Origin: Raillietiella orientalis
Taxonomy: Eukaryota
Direction: 5' to 3'
Length of the DNA stretch: 64,000 nt
Assembly (NCBI GenBank): GCA_036172245.1
Contig: JAYWIR010000077.1
Location: 124,001-188,000, forward strand
Shown here in pieces: positions 24,201 to 56,749 of this stretch (position 1 is its first letter; each line of letters begins with the position of its first letter). The notes under the pieces were generated by a model. That model searched no databases, had not been told where the DNA came from, and saw only the letters and a list, made by a program, of their open reading frames with translations. The translations under genes were made by a program, and so were the position numbers.

Positions 24201-25610
24201 AGGTCGATAGCAACATTCTGGATAGGTTGAGAGTTTTGAATTTCACTCCAAAAAAACCAGACCTCTAAGTTTTTCATTCTCACTTAAGATAAGGATCTTA
24301 GACTCGAAAAAATCTTATATCTTTCTGTTTTCCATTCAAAGGATTCTTTGGGTCCCTGGACGTTAGAGTGATATGGATTTTTAAGAGCATACCACAATGT
24401 AGAAGGAAGATGCCTACAGTCACAATATCCATGTAAAATTTGATTTTATGGAACTAATGAGGAGAAACAAATCACTATTGGGTCAACGGGAAGGTCAGAT
24501 TTGCCTCTGCGGTACCTCCAAGGTGGATGTGTGGGTCTATTTGCCGAAAAAAATTATCTTTATTCCACCTGAACGAGAGCTCCTTTGATTCCTTATCTAA
24601 CGAAAGTCATGAGATTTGCAGTCATTTTTGTGTGTGTGTGTATCTCAACGGTGAACAGAAATGCAATTGGAGCATGGTATCCCATCTCCGAAATCTCGAA
24701 GATTAAGGAGTATCAAGACCATCCATCAAACGACGAAGAATTGATGACGTAAAGCGTAATCGGGCGATAGGGTAAGAAGAAGACGCAATCACTCCAACGC
24801 GTGGAGATCATGCAAAACGCTCTTGGCTACCACTGTGACCATCCAGGAATCCCTGCGACTCGGACTGTAAAGTCCGGGGATCCTCTGGAGACCCGGAAGA
24901 TGACCTAGGTTCTCATCTGTGGGATGGTCCGCAGTTTATTGACCCAACAGATATTTCTATTAAAGTGTATATTCGAGGTGATTACCTTAACCCAGCTCAG
25001 AAGAACTAACGAACCATCAGAGCTTTCGGCCTGATCTGCAGTCTAGTGGCTGGACACGAAAGGAAACGTTCTGCTGCTGGTCTTCCGCTTCCTTCTCTAC
25101 TTTCCGGTCTTTCCTGGACCCTGCTGCTGCATTCTCAAAAGGGAACCGGTAGCCCAGGAAGATGACCCGATTGTCGTTTAGAGCACCAGGTTACACCTCG
25201 GTTGAGTAAACTTTAGGAACGAGTGCGGGCTTGCTGGACACCAGCTTCCAGTGCCCACTTGCTGCTTCCTCGAGCCGTTCCGCCAAGGCGTTCTGCTTAC
25301 TTGTGCGAAAGCGAAGAATCTGCAAAAAGTTCAAGGAAAAAGAAAAAACTGTGCATTCGACCAGTTCTGAATCACAGTGAAATGACTTCATCTTCGCAAA
25401 CGTTTGTGCGAATGGCTTGGCGAGCATTAGTGAGAGTTTCAGTAATGGTTGGGATGCGCAAACCCAAGTGGATAGAGAGAAAACAGCAGGCAGATGGCTA
25501 TCCAATCGTCTTAGTGGATATTTACACTATTCCTCAGTGATAGACACAGAGGTAGAAGGAATCTCGTTGGAGTAGCAGCAACTTGATAACAAAATTAAAA
25601 AAAAAATCAG

Positions 25611-25697
25611 TCCGTAGCCCGCGTTGGAGGACATGTGGCTACGCTCTTCATGCGTGGCACCAAGCGTTGAGGGTTCGAATACCCGTAAAGGATCGAC
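25611..25697 (+). mobile_element. 5' tRNA-like head of a SINE interrupted by the Tx1-like LINE
   Basis: TCCGTAGCCCGCGTTGGAGG (A box) ... AAGCGTTGAGGGTTCGAATACC (B box 25672-25683), homologous to 6675-6733. Confidence 0.7.
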
Positions 25698-25778
25698 GGG
25701 CTTCGCGACGCTCCGCGAATGTCAACGAATGGTGCGTTCTTTTCAAATTCGTGTGGTACTTGTAGACATAAAAGCGTA

Positions 25779-27350
25779 ATGGCAGAAATGCCAAACATCT
25801 CTGCTAAGGAGGGCTGAGGTGATGCGAAGACTGCACCACTAGCCCCGATAGGGACGGAAGCTATCGCTTCCGAAGATCGAGGAGGTCCTGAGGATACAAG
25901 GACGTGGAGCCAATTGGTGTCGGCTGCCACGCTCGGTGCCCAGGCAGAAACGGAGGCTTATTTGGCCCAGAATTACCGGCCTGCTCTGCTCTACAAGGTG
26001 GACCGATTAGGCTTAGCGTCCGTTGCGCGTTCCTTCGCAACGCGAACATTGAGAAGGGAGACCTTGAAGGACTCTCTATGGTAAGAGGGGGTGAAGCGTT
26101 GAGCTGACTTGCAAAGAGTGAGCTCTCGTTCAGCGACTCTACCCCTTCCCACTCGTTCTACTGAATACCCCCATAACCATCGAAGGCAAGAGACTCTACC
26201 CTAGAACGGCGGACCACTCGGTAATGGTCCATCTACGAGGGTTGCGGCTGTACATGGACGAGCGCGAAGTCCTCCTCCAGCTTAAAGAATATGCGGCGGT
26301 CCACGTGTAGAGCAGAGCAGGCCGGTAATTCTAGGCAAGTCAAACTTATTCCCCGTATATGAGGGACTGTTGAGCAGCTTGGCTGTGGCAAGCGTGACCG
26401 TACATGAAGGGAAGCAGCTCCTCTACCGGGTGGAAATGATGGAAATCGGAGGACTTTGATCTCTAGTTCCCTGGGAAACCAACATTATGCAGCCGTTGTA
26501 ATACAACCGGGCATCTGGAGAGAAGACGTCCAGAAATTACTCGCCATGACTGCAGATGGAAGGGCCACATGAAGTTTGTGTGCCCAAACTCGTCAGCGAG
26601 TATCAAGCGCAAAGCCAGAGAAGATACGGCTTGCGGAAAAGAACGGAAGCAAAGGGAAGAAGGAAAGATGCCCACCGCAGTCAAACCAGAACAAACTTTC
26701 AAAAGAGGGGAAGAAATGACCGATGAAGCGGGATGGCAAGTGGAGATATTAAAAAAGGAAAGGAAACAACCTCCCGAAACGAAAAAAGTGGAGAGAACTG
26801 GAAGCAATCGCTAAGCATCCGCAGGACTGCAAGGCGACTCCTCAACAGATTAGCACGATAAAGGCAGCGATTGAAAACGTGAACGCAGTCACGGGAAGCT
26901 CGATCGACGAACCGATCGATAGCAACGAAAGTCGATCGATAACGCTACTGTCATCTCTTCGGATAAGGTGGTGACGCCAGAGCCTTTGAAAGTAAAGACC
27001 TGAAAAAAAAAAGACAGTGAGACGTTCCGCCGAAGGCAGCCTCAGTATGGCTTCCGACTCCGACCTGGATAATGTAAGCACCAGAGGAGGAGTGGAAGCA
27101 ACGGAAACCACCTCAAAGAGGCCCAAGGCCCCAAGGAAGAATGCATCCCCCAAGGCAAAGGAGGAATCAGTCCCAGAAGCCGAGAGGATGCAGGTTGGTT
27201 CCCGGGAGTCATCCCCGGAAAGGATCTTCTGCTCCGGAAGAAGAACAAATGTGAGGGAGAAGGAGTAGAAGAGAGGGGTTATCCCTATACCTTCCCCATC
27301 ACTGGCGATCGTCCCGCCTAAGCAACAGGTAGGAACCATAGAACCGATAT
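25779..27350 (+). pseudogene. LINE ORF1 (gag-like, two CCHC zinc knuckles), frameshifted
   Basis: FPGKPTLCSRCNTTGHLERRRP and HDCRWKGHMKFVCP (~26467-26586), followed by a Lys/Glu/Ser-rich low-complexity tail. Confidence 0.75.
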
Positions 27351-29138
27351 ACCAACAGTAACAAGTGCGCTTGGCTCTGCCGGCGACTACATGTAGTCTG
27401 CTGGAATGTCAACGGGCTGAGCGACGGCGTCAGGAGACAGGACTCAACTGCCTAAGAAGCGGCCGTTCGACATGGTACTTCTGCAAGAGATCCCCATGAT
27501 CTCTGCGGAAGAAATCCAGGAAATGGAATCGATTGCGGACGGCAAGCTGCATTGGTGTTGCGACTCGATGCACTCGTGCGAGGTCGCCTTCTTGCTGAAA
27601 CCAACCGTGAAAAGCACGGTACGTGACGTTCAGTTCGACGATGAAGGCCGGGTAGGACAACTTGTTTTCAAGTGGTCCGAATGGATTGACCTCGTTGTGA
27701 CGAACATATACGCACCGAGCGACTCCAACATGTGAAAGGTGAGGAACCGGATTCTTCGAAGCCCCAAAACGCCGTGGTCGGTGGAAGCAGGCGCGCGGAG
27801 AGCCCACCTAATAGTGAGAGATTTCAACAGACCCTTGCTTCAGGTAGGGGTAGAGGCCAGTTCAACCTGGTTAACGAGGGATGCGCAGCAATGCAACTTG
27901 TTGACTGGGGTCACCGGCATAGAGGGCAGCATCGATCACGTCTTCCCTCGACGACCACCTACGCTTGCGGGTCTGTTATCGTGAAAAGGGGCGAATGACG
28001 TCAGACTACGACCGGATTGAGCTGGAATTACTCCCACGAAGGAAAGGTTAGCCTTCCAACGCGTGGCCCCTACCAAGGTATTGGCTTCATCTCCCGGAGG
28101 CTGCTGAACACCTCCGTAACTTCCGGCGAGATGTCATTGTGCAGCAACTCGATGGCTGGGACGAGATGAAGCTCTCAGTTCGAGAGATCTGCACGACCTT
28201 CCTTACAGACTGCCTCCCTGCCGGGTTTGGTGTTGCAAACCCGGCAGAGAGGCAGTCTGGGCTGGTGAGAGAATGCTCAATGAGCACTCGTGTCTCCAAG
28301 CTCGGTGCTTGGCCAAAAAAAGCCAGACGTTCTTCGTCTGGCTGAGATGAAAGCCACGGTTGAGCGACAAGCCTAGCAGTCCGGGGCGACCAGATTAATG
28401 GACAACCAGGACCAAGAAAGCTCGTCCCCGGCAGAAATATGGCGCATCGTGCGCCAATTTTACTCCTGTACACGAGAGCACTACCGGAACTCGACTTCGC
28501 GCAGCAGTTGCTGCCTGAGGGCGTTCCCGCGATCGGGGAAGAGTCGCGAACACTCTTGAGCGAGCCTCCGCAGTTTTCACGGCAGGGGATTCGTTATGGG
28601 AAAGCTCAAAAGTAGGAAAGCAGCAGGGGAGGACGGCCTGCCGGCTGAATTTTATCAGTATTTCGCGGCAGAGCTGATCCCACTAGTGCATCGAATATGC
28701 ACGCTGATTCAGGAGACAGGTGAGGTGCCCGCCTCCTTTCTATCAGCAAGAGTATGTCTCCTTCTAAAGGGAAAAATGTCTTGCCGTTCAGAAAAGTTAA
28801 GGGGCATGAGGCACGGGAGGAAACCTCCACAACATAAGCAACTGGCGTCCAATTACAGTAATCAACATGGACTTCAAGCTGTTCACGAAGCTATGGATTG
28901 AACGCCTGGGGCGGTTAGCGGAAACATTCATCAGCCCGGGGAAGAAATACAATGTTCCTGGACGAAGTGTGGAAACCAATCTGTTCCTGGTCAGCTCCTG
29001 GCTTTAGTTGCTGCAAAGAGTTGAGCCAGTTGGCCAAAGAGGTACTGAATTCCGAGATGGCCAGGGATCGGGAGGTCACGTTTAGTCAAAGGCGCAGGGA
29101 ACCCCTGCGGTAGCAATCGATTTGCGAAAGGCATTCGA

Positions 29139-30061
29139 TTTTCACCCGGGTCTTCGGGACGTTTATTTAGAAAACAAACTTTAACACGCTCTGTGGCTGG
29201 ACCAGTGATCCAGCCACGCCCAAAGAAACAACACAGAGCCTGCCGGGTCACCGGTTCACAGACCGGTACGGTCCACCACGGCAGCAGGGGGGACAAACAA
29301 AAAACTAAGCAAAAAGAAAAGAAAACGTGGGAGGGTCCGGAAAGGGATCACTGTTGCTGCTGGGGCCGTTGCATCCTTCGCAGGATGCCGGCAAGCTCTC
29401 TCTGTATTCCTGGATCCAGGTGGGGCCATCGCGACGCTCTCTCCAAAAATTCAGTGGCGTGCTGGATGGCACCCTTATCGCGAGGTCCTCCCATTGCCTT
29501 GCTCCAAGCGGCGACGATCCCACGAAGGCAGCAGCACAGGGCTGCTAACGAGGCCGCAGGCCGAAGAGCGTCGGACACGAAGAGGGCTTTAACAGCGTCC
29601 TTGGGGTTTCCTCAGGGGATTCCGATGGCCGCGGCAAAGCATAGCCAAAGGGACCGAAGGGCAACACAATCCACAAGGAGGTGGGAGAGGGACTCCCGTT
29701 CCCCACACCTAACGCAATTGGGGTTCACTGCTCCCCAGGTCCAGCGGTGTCGGCGGGCGTTGCAGGGGAGTCCCCAGTGCTGCAACAGGAGCGCCGACTC
29801 CTGCCATTTCAAGGAGAGGGTGCAGGTGTTCATGAGCACCGGGGGCCACTTCAGATGTTTCACTGGAACATTGAACAGCGCGCCCCAGCGTAAAAGTCAA
29901 TGGGGAGGTGTACTCGGGATCGCAGCGTGAGTTAGCTGGCCCGTCTTCCACTCTCCTATTTTCTTCTCCCCTTCGGAAATTTTTATGTTAACCTCCCACT
30001 TCGCCGCAACATCGCTGTCCGAATCTTCCCTTAGGAGGGCCAGTGCAGCAGCGAGGGGGGT
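29139..30061 (-). mobile_element. Insert A: 5'-truncated related Tx1-like LINE (ORF2 C-terminus plus 3' UTR), antisense within the RT
   Basis: Encodes LPCNARRHRWTWGAVNPNCVRCGERESLSHLLVDC (zf-RVT) and ends AATAAA..CCCGGGTGAAAA. Flanked by CGAAAGGCATTCGA (29125-29138) and CGAAAAGCATTCGA (30062-30075). Confidence 0.88.
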
Positions 30062-30075
30062 CGAAAAGCATTCGA

Positions 30076-30172
30076 TTTTCACCCGGGTTTCTCCGGGGCG
30101 ATTATTATTATAACAAACTTTAACAAAGACGTGCTGTGGCTGGACCAGCAAACCAGCATCACGACGCAGTTT
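30076..30172 (-). mobile_element. Insert B: ~97-bp 3' terminus of the same LINE family, antisense at the same site
   Basis: Homologous to 29139-29225 (TTTTCACCCGGG..AACAAACTTTAACA..CTGTGGCTGGACCAG). Right flank AAAAACCATTCCA (30173-30185) is a decayed target copy, after which the RT frame resumes as CADQELLLEHLECPGFPNVF. Confidence 0.8.
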
Positions 30173-32304
30173 AAAAACCATTCCACTGCGCCGACCAGGA
30201 GCTCCTTTTGGAACATCTGGAATGCCCGGGATTCCCGAATGTTTTCCTAGCCTACCTGCGCTCCTGCCGGCGCAAGGATTCTATTAGATTATATTATGAT
30301 AGATCATTAATATTTTTTTCAGCGGAAGATACGTGCACAGCGTGTCGGTGCGGCATGGCATAAGGCAAGGAGACAGCCTGAGCCCGTTGCTCTTCGGCAT
30401 CTACTTCGAGTTGATGCTGAGAGCGTACGGGATAACTTTTTCTGCCCTTCCCAGGTCGTGCTCCGGAATGTCTGCCGTGTCTGCCTATGCCGACGATCTG
30501 CTCATGTCACCCATGTCAGCTCCGGCAGCATCACTCGAGGAATTCCTCGAGCTGATCAGCCAGGGAGCTGGCGTATAAACAGGGCGAAGTCGATTGGGCT
30601 TCCCGTTGTTGCGATGCGGGCTGGGCAACCGGACTGGTTCCGCTTAAGGATCCCCACGGTCAGGTGCTTTAAGTACCTGGGATTCCCGTTGGGGCACTTT
30701 TGTGCAGCAGAAGGCTGGTCCGGTTGCCTCCAAAAGGCAGAATCGGCTCTCAGACGATTTCTGAATGACAAGTTTCTCTTACTGGAACGGGTTGTTCTGT
30801 GGAACATGTTTGTTGCTCCCCTCCTCTGACCCCTGCTTTTTGTTTGTCCTCGGCCCGGTGATGTAAGAAAGCGGACCGAGGACCTCCTGCAAATAGCTTT
30901 CTGGGGAACGCAGAGGTCCCAGGTCGACTTAAAGGACTTGTGAGCGCCGCGTCTGGACGCCGGACTCGGTGTCTTGACGCTGGAGAGGATGAAGCGTCAG
31001 TTCCAGTGTAGAAGATTAGCCCTAGCGGGGAGGTTCTGGACCACACATCGGTGCGTCCCAGCCAGAGTCCTGGCGAAGAGAGCAGCCGGTGTCGAGGGAC
31101 TCGGTACGTTCCTCGTGCATGGCCACCAAGAGTTTCTCCGATGCGGGTACCAACTCCGACAAATGTTTGTCTTGGTCCAGAAGAAAGAATGGATTTCATG
31201 CCGCCCCGCCAACTGTAGTGCCTGCAAACAGGAAACCGTTCCGGCGTGGGCGAAATTAAACGGCACGAGCCTGGAGCCATCGCGACGCCTGTGATTCTCG
31301 AGCTACGCTCGCTGCAGGAAATCATGGACTGCTCAAGGAAGACCATCTGGGCGCGGAACACCACACTTGCGGTTACGCTGGACACCGTGCGACAAATGGA
31401 AATGGTGATTTACCGCAAGATGGGAAGTATCTTGAGAGATCGCGGGGAAAAAGAAGCTGAGATGCTGGACGGCGCGTCACCTGGCTGGAGCATGTACCCC
31501 TGCCGCCCTCCCCAAAGAAATTCGTCGCTGCGGAACTCCTGAACATTTTTCCTGAAGAAGCAGAGATACTTCCAGTGTTTGTGAACAGCTCCACGCTTCT
31601 TCTGAAGTGGCAGGACTCGGCATTGCAGTTGTTGCACTGGGGATATCCCATGCAACGCACGAGTCCACCACTGAACAAGTGGGAGTGTAGTTCCTGACAT
31701 CCAACAGATGCGAGGAACAGGAAACCTTTCTGCACCAGTTCTTGGTTTGTATTGCTCTCCTGAGTGTCTGGGAGCGCTTCGCTGCAGCCCTCCCACTCCC
31801 GATGGATAACGGTGCCTCTTCGACTTCATCCACTCAATGTTGCCTGCAGCTTGCCTGCAGCTCTGTGCTGTCTTTGTGGAGTTGTAGCGGCGAGCAGCCT
31901 CGCCGAAAGAGACCAGTCAAATGATGAGGTCCTCGCAATCGTCTGCTCCTTCATGAGGAAGGAGACAAGATGGCCACATTGCCATCAAAAGCAGGAAGTT
32001 GCCAACACCCTCCAGAGGATGCTGAGGACGTCAGGAAGAAATCTGTGATCCCTTCCCTTTCCTCCCAAACATTTCTAAACTGAACTTTAGTATTCTTTTT
32101 CCCGTTTTTGTTTACCCCTTCCACCACTCCTCCTGTGCGGACCTCATTGGGGAGTTGCTCGCGAGAAGCAGCGCCTCCGAGGCATCTCCCTTCGTAGTGG
32201 TGATGTGAAGCCATCGCGAAGGAAAACATTTTTATATTTTATGTAACAGTTTTCATTGTAAATATTTTTTTTACAATAAATGCCCCGGTATGATAGGGTG
32301 AAAA

Positions 32305-33095
32305 TGAACGATCAACTCCAGAGAAATGGGTGCGTCGTGGGTTTCTCGAGTTCATCGCAAGATAATGCTGGTTGACCCATATTCGGGTGCGGCACTGATA
32401 AAAGCTTCAAAATGGACGCCCCCGAAAAATGGCCGGGATCGGAAGTTGATCCTTCGTGGTCCTTCCAGTGATCAGAATTAAGGAGTCGGTTCCCTTCGGT
32501 TATGAAGATGGAGTCGTCTTCCCTCCCTCGGGGGGACCACACCATCTCGTACCATGGGGATCGGTGGATTGATACCTCTCCAGAGTGTGAAAAAGTGAGC
32601 TGTTCCCTTCGGGAGCGACTCTTCAGAGAAAATTTGAAGCGTTCCTTCGGGATTCTCTTCAGAGAAGTAATAAGGAGCGGTTTCCTTGCGGGTACCCTCC
32701 GGAGAAGAAATTCCAAGAGTGCTGATCCTTTCTAGATTCCATTCGGAGAAGAAATAATGAGGCGGTCCCCTCCGGGGGTCCCTTTGGAGAGAATAAGAAA
32801 GAGGTTCTTTTCGGAGTTCCCCGAATACAACCAGGGTGGAGGGTTCCCTCCAAAGCGTGAGAAGAACGGACTCTTCTCTGGGGTCTTTCCTGGATTCATG
32901 GGGTGGTCCCCTCCTGGGGGTACCCCCCAACTTGAGGAGTCACTATCGCACCCTCGGGTGGAGTGGAACAGTGTTTAAGAGCTGTGTGAGCCCACAGGAG
33001 GACGGTTCTTGGGTACTTAGGGAACCAAAAAAAAAGAAACCCGAAAAAAAAAAAGCTGGAAGGAAAAGAGCGAAAAAGAAAAGAACTCAAAAGAG
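32305..33095 (+). mobile_element. 3' remainder of the interrupted SINE, with internal minisatellite and A-rich tail
   Basis: 32310-32440 matches 6735-6858. 32937-32968 (GAGTCAC..CACCCTC.GG..GTGGAAC) matches 6865-6892. A-rich tail at 33027-33092. Confidence 0.65.
32625..32895. repeat. Degenerate ~36-44-bp tandem repeat (about 5-7 units)
   Basis: Units begin (A/G)GAGAA near 32625, 32661, 32701, 32745 and 32786, each with consensus-like GAGAAGAAATAA.GAG.CGGT.CC.T.CGGG.TCCCT. Confidence 0.65.
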
Positions 33096-40200: not shown

Positions 40201-40975
40201 GTGCAATCACTGGGCTACGAATCGAATTCACCGAGGTGGATTTTAATCCTTTCACTTGTCAAGCCTCTCATGCATGAAAATTACCTTTAGCCTGAAGAAA
40301 AGCACCCTTCATAGATCCGTATTCCTGAAGGATTCTTCTTCATGCTTATCCTTCGCGTAACTCTTCACCAAATGCTCCTCCTTGCTGACGTTTCATTCCA
40401 AACAAACCCGGGATTACGTGCAAGATCTTGCAACGACTCTGTAAAGCTCATTCTCCCTGATCGGGAGCATCCTCTGAAAACGCCATTCCACTGTGATGAA
40501 TCTCCACTGCAGCTAATGTCCGCCTTCCAAACTCTGGCATCAACGCTCCATAATTCTAGAGAGGACTCGCGATCTGGTTGATAGTCATTGAGCACGCGAT
40601 CTTGAACTCGGAGTTTCCTCCTTCCGCTCGGCTCGCCATCTCCTCGGATGTACTGCTGCACTCGGAAGTTTCCTCCTCTCTGTGGCTCCCCCCCTCACCT
40701 TCGGATGCTCCGCAGCTTCCCTGCGGCGTTCACATGGAAAAGAAGCTGAGGACGCGCTGCAATTCCAAGCGCCCGGAGTCCCTCGCAGCAACAATGGAGG
40801 CGTTGCTCCGAGTTGGATCGATAGTCACGTGAGAGGCGGCAGCTTTGGCTGCCAAGCAAAACGAGCCGCAAGGTGGGCGGCTCGCAACCGAAGTCTGCGG
40901 AGCTCCCCTGCGATCACCTCCCCTACATCGTAGGGCGCTCTCCCGCCGGTGAAGAGAAAGTAGCCACAAGGCACC

Positions 40976-43102
40976 ATGGGGAATGAGAAGCCTCAGCGAA
41001 GCAACCCTTGTCTGTGCGTGACTTCCTCAGAAAGCTCATCCACCCCTGGATCCACGTCCGTGTCCTGCTCCTCTGGGCAAACAACGAGTGATCAGTACAC
41101 GAATTCGACAGTCTCCGGTTGCTTTGCCTGCAGCAGGAAGAAGATTTGCGACCTGCAGCCGCAGTTCATGAGTTCTCCCGTTGGGTGCAGACGGGGATTG
41201 GAGGACTCCCGGTCTTCGAGCAGCTCTGGACAACAGCGGCAAGCATCGAACGGGTCTCAGCGATACTACAAAGGAAGAAAACGTCCAGGAGAGACGACCT
41301 CGTCTAACGCCGAGGGCTGGAGCGCCGGTGATCTCCCGGACAGCGGTCCCTGCGGACAGCGACATACAAGGGGCTCGCGAGTCGGCGCCAAAAGTTGTCT
41401 CTCCCTTCCCCTGGCAAAGCCCTTTGGAATCGAAGACGACAGTGGAGAACGAAGTCCCCTGAGGCCGCGCGCGATGGTCCCACGTCTTCTGGGTCGTTGC
41501 CGTCGCCCGAAGAAGAAGAAACCCATCTCAGAGCTAATGCTATCGCCTCTTCTGGAGGAGAGCAGCGGCGATTCACTGCTGAGGCGAGAGAGCGTCAAAC
41601 CGTTCCCTGCCCTAGATCCGCGCGGAGAGGACGTAGGGCTCTTCTTCGAGACGCCTTCGGAATCGTCCTGTCCGGAGGGTCAAACCGAACTCCGTAGGAA
41701 TGCAGAGGAAGCCAAAAAGAGCCTCTCAGACGGAGAGCACCACCGTGGAGGAGCCGCAGAAGGGAGAAGACGGAGCGCTGCTTCAGCAGAGCGGCAGAGA
41801 CCAGAGCGCGCGGGCCCTGCAGGATGCGTTCGGAAGGAACCCCGGGGTAGCAGGCGGATGGGAAACTTCAGAAGGCGCCGAAGGCATTTGGGTGGGGAAT
41901 GCAAGATTTGTTTTCCTCGGAACTCTCTTGCTTCCTCGAGCTCTTGTTGTCTGACTCCCGGCACGGTTCCCCACCCTTGCTCCGGAAAGAGGCGCTGCTC
42001 TCGCGACGACTCCTTCAGAAGGGCGATGAATGCCTTCATCGAGGAGTTCTCCCAGAAGTTCAAAGAGAATCTGGACCTGCGCCTGGGGAGCAATGGTCTG
42101 GTACGGTCGTCCTGCTGCCAGGGACGCTGCTGCTGCCCAAGGCGCGCTCGCTCCGATCCGAGGAGGCTGGAGTCGAGGAGCAGCGACACGACCCAGGCGG
42201 CGCCTCCCTTTAATAGAGGTCTTCTTTCCTATGCCCCTCCGGTTCGGCGCTATCCCCTGCAAAACTGGGCGCGGATGGAGTGTTGCAACCCTAATATGAA
42301 GCCCCGCGAGTTGCTGCGAATTTTCCCTCCTTCCTTCAAGGGACGTGGGCAGAACAAGGTCTCCTCCTCGCCTTCCTCCTGCGGGAAGCCTCCTTCTCCT
42401 CCTCCACCGTCCTGCTCGCCCCAGAGACCCCTTCCTGGTGCCATGAAGATCTCCTGCAGGCATCCCTGTGGACGAGGAGCAGCGCCGCAGTTCCTTATCA
42501 GCCAGTGCGGCAGCGAGACAGTGCCGCCGCCACTGGACTGCCGGAGAAAGGTGTTGGAGGAGGAGAGCGCGTGTCCTCGCTGCTGTTGCTGCTGCCCCCA
42601 CCGCTCTCGTCCTCGCCGCCGCTGCTGCTGCTGTTGCTGCTCTGAAGGGAAGGTGGAGGGCCGCGGTGCGGCCGCCATCTGTTCCAGGAAGATCCGGTGC
42701 GACAAGCCGAAAGCATGTCCCACGGAGCGCGTCAGGGGATCGGCACCCTCACCTTTCTCGACCTACTACCTAACTCACGTCTGTCCATTGCATAGCGTGT
42801 ACTGCGAGGGCAAGGACGGCAGACCTCTCACGTGGTGGTGTCAGCAGTCCCCCTCCTGCCCTCCGCCTCCGTGCTGTTGCTGCTGCAGCCGCAGCCGCCG
42901 CGACTCTGCCTGCGCAGAGGAGCACCCGCATGCCTTCAGCTACCGATCTCATAATTACAGTCACCCCAGAACCCAATGGAAGTCGAGGAAGGGAAGGAAG
43001 GAGAGAATGGGAAGAAGAGCGGTGAGACGGAAGGGGGAAAGGGGTGTGGTTCGAGGAAGCTTGAGGACAGAATTCGTCTATCCTCCTGTAGTTCCCGGCT
43101 GA
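40976..43102 (+). CDS. Intronless 708-aa Cys/Arg/Pro/Ser-rich hypothetical protein
   Basis: 2127-bp uninterrupted ORF with strong Kozak context GGCACCATGG. Contains poly-Cys and poly-Pro runs. No family recognised. Confidence 0.6.
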   Translation: MGNEKPQRSNPCLCVTSSESSSTPGSTSVSCSSGQTTSDQYTNSTVSGCFACSRKKICDLQPQFMSSPVGCRRGLEDSRSSSSSGQQRQASNGSQRYYKGRKRPGETTSSNAEGWSAGDLPDSGPCGQRHTRGSRVGAKSCLSLPLAKPFGIEDDSGERSPLRPRAMVPRLLGRCRRPKKKKPISELMLSPLLEESSGDSLLRRESVKPFPALDPRGEDVGLFFETPSESSCPEGQTELRRNAEEAKKSLSDGEHHRGGAAEGRRRSAASAERQRPERAGPAGCVRKEPRGSRRMGNFRRRRRHLGGECKICFPRNSLASSSSCCLTPGTVPHPCSGKRRCSRDDSFRRAMNAFIEEFSQKFKENLDLRLGSNGLVRSSCCQGRCCCPRRARSDPRRLESRSSDTTQAAPPFNRGLLSYAPPVRRYPLQNWARMECCNPNMKPRELLRIFPPSFKGRGQNKVSSSPSSCGKPPSPPPPSCSPQRPLPGAMKISCRHPCGRGAAPQFLISQCGSETVPPPLDCRRKVLEEESACPRCCCCCPHRSRPRRRCCCCCCSEGKVEGRGAAAICSRKIRCDKPKACPTERVRGSAPSPFSTYYLTHVCPLHSVYCEGKDGRPLTWWCQQSPSCPPPPCCCCCSRSRRDSACAEEHPHAFSYRSHNYSHPRTQWKSRKGRKERMGRRAVRRKGERGVVRGSLRTEFVYPPVVPG

Positions 43103-54858: not shown

Positions 54859-55983
54859 TCAACGAAAAGCAAGCAGGAAGAATTCTTCCTGCTTACCCTT
54901 TGTCGACTCTTGACATCTTCCCTGTTTTCTCTCTTGCTCTTCTAAACCAAAGCAGACCCTTACCTTTTGAACGGAGCCTTCCGGTGTGCACATCTGGTAA
55001 TTATCTACAGCATTCGGCACTACTTCGACCTCTGCAGATTCATCTGCTGCATTATTCGAGCTCATCTTTTGAATGTTGGACTGAAGATCGCAAATCTTGA
55101 GATAGAGGATCTCTTTAACCTCCCTGATGTTGCTGGGAGAGATCTCGTTGGTTATACATTTCAGAGTGTTTATCAGCTCCTCCAAGCAGTTCGAGGCTTC
55201 CCGTATGACCCTCCCTCTGTTTTTCAGGATCCGGTTGAGATCGCCTATCTCTTGCTTGCGGATGCAGCTCTCCTCCTGGTACGTGGCATCGAGCTTCTGT
55301 ATCAGGCTATCCTTCTTCCTGTTTTCTTCTATCAGCTCGGTCATGGCTGCATATTTCTGGTCATTGATCCGCTTCAATGCCTCCACTTCCGCCTTGAGGT
55401 CGACAAGCTGCTGGTTCAGCAACTTGTTTGCCAGGAGTTGCTTCTCCCCTACTTCGACCTGCTCCTGGAGCTCCAGGATGTTCTGCTCCTTCAGCTGAAT
55501 CTGCTTCAGAAGGCAGCAGTAGTTGGTGGACAAGTCTTTGTTCTCCTTCTGCACCCTAGAGTAGACGTAGCGGCTCTGTTCCAGTTCATTGAGTAAGCTG
55601 CGCACCACATATTCTGGGGTCGCTTCGTCCTCTCCGACCTTGCTGATAATGTGCTGCGTCTCCGGCATCACCACGCTCTTCATTGTTTCTTCCAGAGTCC
55701 TTCTCAGGTCCTGATTTTTCTCCATGAGGTCTTCCAACTTCTTCTTCAACTGCTCCTCTGTTTTAAAGTTGTCCGTCTTTTCATAATCTTCTCCAAGTTT
55801 GTTCCTTTTAAATTCTTCCATGATTTGATCCATTTTGTTCCCGATGACTTCAAGAATGCCTTGGGTTTCTTTATCACCTTCCGTATATCTCTTGCCCTTC
55901 AACTCTGCCTTCAGCGCCTGGAGTTCTTCTTTCTGTGCCTCTACAGTGTCTTCGAGCCCTTGGATGTTCTCTTCTCTCTGCAA
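54859..55983 (-). CDS. 374-aa coiled-coil protein (probable exon or frameshifted gene)
   Basis: Uninterrupted E/K/L/Q-rich heptad-patterned ORF. It starts at TTG within TTTATTGCAG, a possible splice acceptor. There is an in-frame stop at 56001-55999 and an out-of-frame ATG at 56006. Confidence 0.7.
   Translation of the reverse strand: MQREENIQGLEDTVEAQKEELQALKAELKGKRYTEGDKETQGILEVIGNKMDQIMEEFKRNKLGEDYEKTDNFKTEEQLKKKLEDLMEKNQDLRRTLEETMKSVVMPETQHIISKVGEDEATPEYVVRSLLNELEQSRYVYSRVQKENKDLSTNYCCLLKQIQLKEQNILELQEQVEVGEKQLLANKLLNQQLVDLKAEVEALKRINDQKYAAMTELIEENRKKDSLIQKLDATYQEESCIRKQEIGDLNRILKNRGRVIREASNCLEELINTLKCITNEISPSNIREVKEILYLKICDLQSNIQKMSSNNAADESAEVEVVPNAVDNYQMCTPEGSVQKVRVCFGLEEQERKQGRCQESTKGKQEEFFLLAFR
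54871..54894. repeat. Perfect 24-bp palindrome
   Basis: AAGCAGGAAGAATTCTTCCTGCTT, with imperfect pairing extending about 13 bp further each side. Confidence 0.9.
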
Positions 55984-56749
55984 TAAACGAGTGATTTCTT
56001 ATCCATAGATCTAATTCCCAGATTTTAAATCCCTTTCCCCTGCCCCCTCTTTGCGCCTACGTCCTTCACGTTTCCGAAAATGTGATTCAAAGTGGTGATT
56101 TGTACCAGTTGCACAGTTTCACTGGTGAAATTCTGAAATTGATTTGATCAAATTCCTTCTATTTCATTTGTTTCCGATTCTTGAATTCCCTACCGTGTTT
56201 ATCGAATTCTAAAATCCGTTTTCTTCGTCCATTTTATCCATTTGTCATGTCATTTTGTATAAAGCAGCAAAATATTCCGTAAATTAAGGCAAAATCCCCG
56301 TTCCCTTTGCGCAGGTTCATTTAGAATCTTTTGCAGTTCTCGCTAAACACTACCCATGTTCTGGATAACCACGTGCATGACATAGGCAAGGTAAAGGTGA
56401 ACGCTCTCGCACATCTATTTTGTACAGCCACACCGATCCGAAAAAGCTTTGACAGCCTCAGACCCTTTCCAGTTAGCTGGATTGAGTTCCTGGATCTCTA
56501 TGCATATATGAATTCTCTTGTTCCGTTTGGAATTTCAGGAAGGCAGGCACACAGAATCACACATTTTGTTCTTGCTGCATGTTTTTTTCTAGGAAAGATA
56601 ATCCGTCATCGGATTGATGCCGAAGCAACTTCCGTAACGCAGAAGATTTGCAGTCTTGTAGATCGCAACTCTTGGTGACACTAACCTTTCATTCCAACTG
56701 GTTTGTTATGTGCAGCTTTCGGACCGTACCGTCCTTCCTCCTAGCTGCA

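Follow-up and report, generated by a model that had tools for sequence, protein, structure and literature searches.

Stacked antisense LINE tails behind the KAFD codons of a decayed LINE in Raillietiella orientalis suggest site-selective insertion into a related reverse transcriptase gene

Can a lineage of retrotransposons aim at the reverse transcriptase (RT) gene of its own relatives? The question is raised by a locus of Raillietiella orientalis at which the 3′ ends of two antisense long interspersed nuclear elements (LINEs) stand one behind the other inside the RT gene of a third LINE, each directly against codons for the residues KAFD. The locus lies in a window of 64,000 nucleotides (nt), the whole stretch of DNA that was analysed (assembly GCA_036172245.1, contig JAYWIR010000077.1, positions 124,001 to 188,000 of the forward strand), and all coordinates given here are those of the window. 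The interrupted element, referred to below as the host, is a decayed L1/Tx1-like LINE on the + strand with its 3′ end at 32304. A preliminary description of the stretch had reported that the host RT breaks off and restarts around two antisense LINE 3′ ends bracketed by three target copies, and reading both strands confirmed this anatomy. UTR stands for untranslated region, and the features of the locus are as follows:

26467..29124, + strand: left part of the host LINE, broken by many frameshifts and stops; it comprises an ORF1-like CCHC knuckle, a region resembling an APE endonuclease and the RT in its N-terminal half
29125-29138, + strand: target copy 1, CGAAAGGCATTCGA, the host codons (L)RKAF(D)
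29139..30061, - strand: insert A, 923 bp, the 5′-truncated 3′ end of a LINE with the ORF2 C-terminus and a zf-RVT match
30062-30075, + strand: target copy 2, CGAAAAGCATTCGA, with A on its left and B on its right, identical to copy 1 at 13 of 14 positions
30076 to about 30171, - strand: insert B, about 96 nt, from another related LINE of which no more than the 3′ tail is present; the 5′ limit may be off by a few nt
30172-30185, + strand: target copy 3, TAAAAACCATTCCA, which reads KPFH, a decayed duplicate of the KAFD codons (9/14 identical to copy 1)
30186..32304, + strand: right part of the host LINE, continuing the RT (GIRQGDSLSPLLF...YADD) and going on through the C-terminal CCHC region and the 3′ UTR to the terminus ...AATAAATGCCCCGGTATGATAGGGTGAAAA

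The order copy 1, A, copy 2, B, copy 3 is that of tandem insertions sandwiching a target-site duplication (TSD), and the 3′ end of copy 1 served as the primer for the antisense insert. At this one locus, the stacking of the A and B tails directly after the KAFD codons suggests, without proving, that related LINEs aim at that spot. We give roughly an even chance to sequential site-selective insertion of the kind seen in Tx1-type LINEs, which stack in tandem around a TSD. Identical nick positions, the specificity of the endonuclease and a genome-wide preference are the parts of this reading that we infer.

The duplication of the target can be followed in the host reading frame, which runs as ...AQGTPAVAIDLRKAF(D), AVAIDLRKAFD, to 29138 and restarts at 30186 with CTGCGCC..., translated as CADQELLLEHLECPGFP. 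The sole close match to the host RT piece is P0014, a protein of 619 amino acids (aa) with an intact RT on a 2870-bp metagenome (JGI) contig, whose sequence at the motif is ...DLRKAFDCVDQELLL... (in a longer stretch, ...AVAVDLRKAFDCVDQELLLELLERMGFP...). The host piece ending at 29139 aligns with P0014 residues 127-234 at 48% identity, KAFD being its last residues, and the piece from 30175 (KPFHCADQ...) aligns with residues 231-263. Since both halves of the host cover the KAFD of P0014 (231-234), KAFD codons stand at both ends of the inserted block, the target has been duplicated and no host sequence is missing. For the decayed copy 3, a match to copy 1 at 9 of 14 positions has a probability of about 0.004 at a fixed position. 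The junctions themselves are repeated as well: each of the two contains the 17-mer GGGTGAAAATCGAATGC, of which the 64 kb hold no other exact copy, and in a shuffle control allowing at most 3 mismatches to this 17-mer the mean was 0.25 matches, with at least 2 matches in 3 of 100 shuffles. Of the earlier proposal of two successive 13-14-bp TSDs, the duplication around the inserts is upheld by the P0014 alignment; the length is left ambiguous, as the direct repeat that spans the junctions measures 27 nt rather than 14 nt (29125-29151 and 30062-30088, 26/27 identical). It consists of 14 nt of host sequence and the 13 nt of terminus common to A and B.

Judged from their sequences, A and B are distinct relatives, copies neither of each other nor of the host. 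In insert A, the C-terminus of an ORF2 can be read through 237 codons without a frameshift, two TGA lying in this frame, and the CCHC region of A matches zf-RVT with E values of 8e-5 to 5e-4, below the Pfam cut-off. The 3′ UTR of A, of 209 nt, holds a 12-bp hairpin and ends in ...ACCCGGGTGAAAA. The terminal 13 nt (ACCCGGGTGAAAA) are identical in A and B, which also have in common a tail block made up of the 3′ arm of the hairpin, the GTTAAAGTTTGTT block and the terminus. Outside the 13-nt terminus, the two tails agree at 51 aligned positions and differ at 12 (7 by transversion), an identity of 81%, and their alignment opens 3 gaps. At the indel rate of the tails, about 15 indels would be expected in the 714 coding nt of A, and none that shifts the frame was seen (P about 3e-7). 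The divergence of the tails together with the unshifted coding part of A indicates that B is not a later duplicate of A and that their source elements differ. Relative to the host, A can be aligned over 81 nt only, with 78% identity, and its C-terminal protein is 37.5% identical (24/64). These values, and the fact that A has its own 3′ terminus, rule out an inversion of the host RNA by twin priming. Here the preliminary description, which had called A a diverged relative on the strength of a peptide identity of 16/24, was right on both counts, as a recount of the translations gave the same figure.

The likely order of events, as read from the sequence, is the host first, then B, then A inside the left duplicate made by B. 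Copies 1 and 2, which flank A, differ from each other at 1 of 14 positions, copy 3 differs from them at 4-5 of 14, and frameshifts abound in the host, whereas A is close to intact, so that B is placed before A. Under sequential site-selective insertion, an old L1/Tx1-like LINE would have been hit first by B and later by A, both being 5′-truncated copies of related but different LINE lineages that target-primed reverse transcription would have placed in antisense. Each time, the + strand would have been nicked right after ...GGCATTCGA, the KAFD codons of RT motif A, and the second strand cut about 14 nt upstream, which would leave three target copies, one on each side and one sandwiched. The simplest cause would be an endonuclease of strong sequence selectivity, with determinants that lie in the 14 duplicated nt or further upstream, which could for that reason have cut the left duplicate again even though the sequence downstream of it had become the tail of B. 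As all long copies of the host family carry this sequence, the elements would in practice be aiming at the RT gene of a related LINE family, and the flank 3′ of tails of the A/B type would be expected to read TCGAATGC..., the antisense KAFD codons of host-family RTs.

What else could have brought A to within 13 nt of the end of B? Pairing of the RNA with the primer is one candidate. In the two unambiguous insertions, that of B into the host and that of the host into its own site, there is no microhomology between the primer (...TTCGA and ...GTTCA, respectively) and the RNA end AAAA, and such elements therefore seem not to need annealing. RNA-guided targeting by pairing between the tail and the flank was also considered and rejected, since the A/B tails are complementary to the host flanks no more than chance allows: exact stretches reach 5-7 nt at the longest, and shuffles did as well in at least 56 of 200 cases. 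With no need for annealing and no complementarity of tail and target, nothing else in the data draws A to this place. In addition, the left limits of the two duplications lie within 2 nt of each other.

Several observations weigh against site-selective insertion at the KAFD codons. The evidence comes from a single locus: the two A/B-type termini in the window share the KAFD flank (2/2) and both lie in the same place. The one host-type terminus in the window, GGGTGAAAA, is of the same kind as those of A and B and adjoins a different flank, TGAACGATCAAC, unrelated to the KAFD target, which speaks against a habit of the whole clade. The assignment to the L1/Tx1 group is one of domain architecture. 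The leftmost two bases of copy 3 are mismatched (TA against CG), so that the TSDs of the two events need not have been of the same length. The 27-nt repeat stops exactly where the tails of A and B start to diverge, and the probability of at least 26/27 identities given the 81% identity of the tails is 0.024, which makes the junction block more alike than the tails behind it; a recent 27-nt duplication predicts this directly, and a double hit at the same base requires that the terminus was functionally conserved. Finally, the 13 nt that A and B have in common allow 14 placements of the first nick made by A, from the junction of host and tail, with a 14-nt TSD and the same base as for B, to positions inside the tail of B, with a TSD of up to 27 nt. 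A hit twice at the same base, as the preliminary description had it, is therefore compatible with the data and not established.

These points bear most directly on an alternative in which only B hit the KAFD codons, perhaps by chance, and A later entered the 3′ terminus of B. The + strand would have been nicked within or just after TTTTCACCCGGGT, with the 3′ end of the RNA of A paired with the primer, and a second nick 14 nt upstream of the junction of host and B would have given a TSD of 15-27 nt that mimics a same-base hit. The extent of the repeat, its ending exactly at the divergence of the tails and its excess likeness over the rest of them are all as this alternative would have them, and so is the lack of a KAFD flank at the host, which bears the same kind of terminus. 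As a precedent for a role of the 3′ end, the priming sites of RTE-type elements are proposed to depend on repeats at the 3′ end of the RNA (PMC6007223). However, primer and RNA end have no microhomology in the insertions of B and of the host, so that annealing seems unneeded. In addition, a nick is very unlikely to fall within a given 13 nt unless it is targeted in some way, and the left limit of the duplication of A, at or within 2 nt of that of B, would be a matter of chance. We consider this alternative unlikely, and it is the main rival of site-selective insertion.

A single insertion followed by tandem duplication of the target copy and the element through unequal exchange, with one copy then internally deleted to the 96-nt B, would account for the same orientation, the same junction and the sandwiched target copy. 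It is highly improbable, as it needs two further rare events, and it meets with tails that differ at 12 of 63 aligned bases and by 3 gap openings in about 70 nt, with a 714-nt coding part in A that is unshifted (P about 3e-7 at equal rates), and with a 27-nt junction block that is 26/27 identical against 81% elsewhere in the tails. Two non-selective insertions that fell on the same base by coincidence, or an assembly chimera of repeat copies, can hardly be credited, for although this window is one of very many that were scanned, so that rare coincidences will surface, elements without selectivity are extremely unlikely to agree in base, strand and staggered cut, and a chimera would not leave the host frame correct across the whole block with both halves in register with P0014.

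The architecture of the elements involved points to the L1/Tx1 group. P0014 matches RVT_1 with 85.7 bits, its top match among PDB structures is human L1 ORF2p (E 7e-40, against 1e-17 for R2 proteins), and more distant relatives of P0014 carry PF03372, PF00078 and PF13966 together; the match to L1 ORF2p and these relatives indicate an L1/Tx1 architecture. The APE endonuclease, the RT and the C-terminal CCHC/zf-RVT region that mark the L1/Tx1 superfamily were found across the host, A, P0014 and the relatives. The hallmarks of the L1 clade in the strict sense, a poly(A) tail and a T-rich nick site for pairing, were absent, as the termini are of the type GGGTGAAAA with four A, and the primer ends have no run of T (...TTCGA for A and B, ...GTTCA for the host).

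The lineage of A and the host is poorly sampled in databases. HMMER with the C-terminus of A against 1.84 billion representatives returned 8 matches, and only one of them, P0003, is close; in the C-terminus, its aa identity is 57% to A (48/84) and 27/65 to the host. The search with P0014 returned 107 matches, all others at most about 32% identical. Beyond P0014 and P0003, the relatives in the databases thus reach no more than about 32% identity in the P0014 search and 42% over short stretches in the search with A. Each of the two proteins is listed with a longest contig of 2870 bp, and they presumably lie on the same contig. The RT of P0014 encodes DLRKAFDC. As the element of P0003 is closer to A than to the host and its RT encodes this motif, the A-like lineage itself probably carries the same DLRKAFDC at the protein level. 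KAFD lies in RT motif A, but the catalytic Asp is the D of AID five residues upstream.

Several systems are known to which this locus can be compared. Tx1-type families are described as targeting other transposons, among them piggyBac, Mariner, Harbinger and LTR retrotransposons, and where tandem copies enclose a TSD, successive insertions at a specific site of another transposon are given as the cause (PMC4494074). The examples given there are Tx1L in the piggyBac-type Tx1D, Tx1-Mar in Mariner-N4_AMi, Tx1-9_AMi in Harbinger, and Tx1-8_Crp and Tx1-4_AMi in LTR retrotransposons, together with SINEU passengers (PMC4494074). The elements studied here resemble these Tx1-clade LINEs in that they are of the APE type, have a specific tail that is not poly(A) and occupy a putatively fixed site in a multicopy mobile element, and also in a TSD of about 14-16 nt and in tandem copies that sandwich it (PMC4494074). 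The arrangement at the locus, which the preliminary description had compared with the stacking of Tx1-clade LINEs, is the one described there. Unlike in those families, the candidate target here is the RT-coding sequence of a related LINE, at the KAFD codons of motif A, and the specificity is judged from one locus.

A fixed endonuclease nick in a multicopy target is also found in R1/R2-type and other sequence-specific LINEs (R1Bm, R2, Keno, Kibi, Koshi and Utopia), but their targets are host RNA genes or microsatellites and not the enzyme gene of another retrotransposon. R2-type elements moreover use a restriction-like endonuclease, and L1 ORF2p matches P0014 far better than R2 does. For sequence-specific LINEs, read-through or co-transcribed target sequence can aid precise priming (PMC4494074). 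With ordinary nested L1-like insertions, the locus has in common that 5′-truncated antisense fragments lie in an older LINE and that the RNA 3′ end may pair with the primer; it differs from them in having only four terminal A, primer ends without T runs, and two different relatives that share one junction with a sandwiched target copy. A search of full-text papers that took in neither Repbase Reports nor most subscription journals brought up no LINE described as targeting the RT-coding sequence of a second LINE.

What would it mean if the site were indeed selected? Only as a tentative and rather doubtful extension do we propose that the endonuclease of one LINE lineage recognises, in antisense, the LRKAFD codons of RT motif A in its kin, codons that are hard for the kin to change, and that the lineage would in this way colonise and disable related LINEs. 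Because an intact element closer to A (P0014/P0003) encodes DLRKAFDC, such a lineage may also strike its own full-length copies and be self-limiting. The safe havens of target-specific LINEs include multicopy RNA genes, microsatellites and other transposons. If the proposal is true, direct competition between retrotransposon lineages, or self-limitation, would join this list; retrotransposon would be set against retrotransposon, with a safe haven built into the system. The target would then be new, although the kind of system is known, and an endonuclease that recognises a defined sequence of about 14 nt would become available. The locus is one well-documented case that makes the question of KAFD targeting testable at genome scale.

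Searches for further members of the family gave little. The C-terminus of A had no match among longer proteins, and scans with DNA patterns of the tail and junction gave 0 hits in viral contigs and 0 in genome contigs. Three metagenome loci from a protein-guided search were rejected as family DNA, as they match 25 query residues only; one of them (L001) we take, from reading its sequence, to be a bacterial gamma-glutamyltranspeptidase-type gene. The search guided by P0014 found no locus in viral contigs and one LINE RT in genome contigs, 26% identical (L004, 540-1238), on a 1.8-kb contig filed as an uncultured Rickettsia metagenome-assembled genome, which is most likely misbinned DNA of the arthropod that harbours the bacterium.

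The remaining parts of the host LINE show how far it has decayed. Its ORF1-like CCHC knuckle is a weak match to zf-CCHC_3 (26467-26811), and the start drawn at 26467 is a provisional one. The N-terminus of P0011, a full-length LINE ORF2, matches the endonuclease region at 27541-27723 (tblastn, E 1.5e-4), and P0011 also matches the RT at 28834-28992 (E 1.6e-6). Weak matches of the host RT to the RVT_1 profile cover positions 7-54 upstream of the inserts and 107-161 downstream of them. At the 3′ end (32296-32330), the terminus GGGTGAAAA, which ends at 32304, abuts TGAACGATCAACTCC, and no duplication of at least 10 nt matching the 3′ flank was found at 22.0-27.5 kb. Just 3′ of the host, at 32400-33000, loose repeats of CCCTTCGG/CCCTCCGG-type motifs are seen together with long minus-strand open reading frames; Tandem Repeats Finder reported no array there. 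Upstream of the host, at 25610-25710, a tRNA-like T-loop motif (GGTTCGAATACC) stands within a GC-rich patch and may be the head of a short interspersed nuclear element or a decayed tRNA gene. ARAGORN and Rfam each gave 0 matches on the window, and the flanks are thus not a known RNA gene.

Two further open frames were noted elsewhere in the window. A GC-rich block at 40-44 kb (55-59% GC) holds a frame of 712 codons on the + strand (40964-43099) that is of low complexity and rich in Cys, Ser, Arg and Pro; it had no Pfam match and could be a further repeat, or some other sequence read out of frame. On the - strand, at 54862-55998, lies a frame of 379 codons, for which the Atlas feature search listed chordate coiled-coil families, a weak hint that is used here for no claim; the frame encodes a coiled-coil protein and resembles a large exon.

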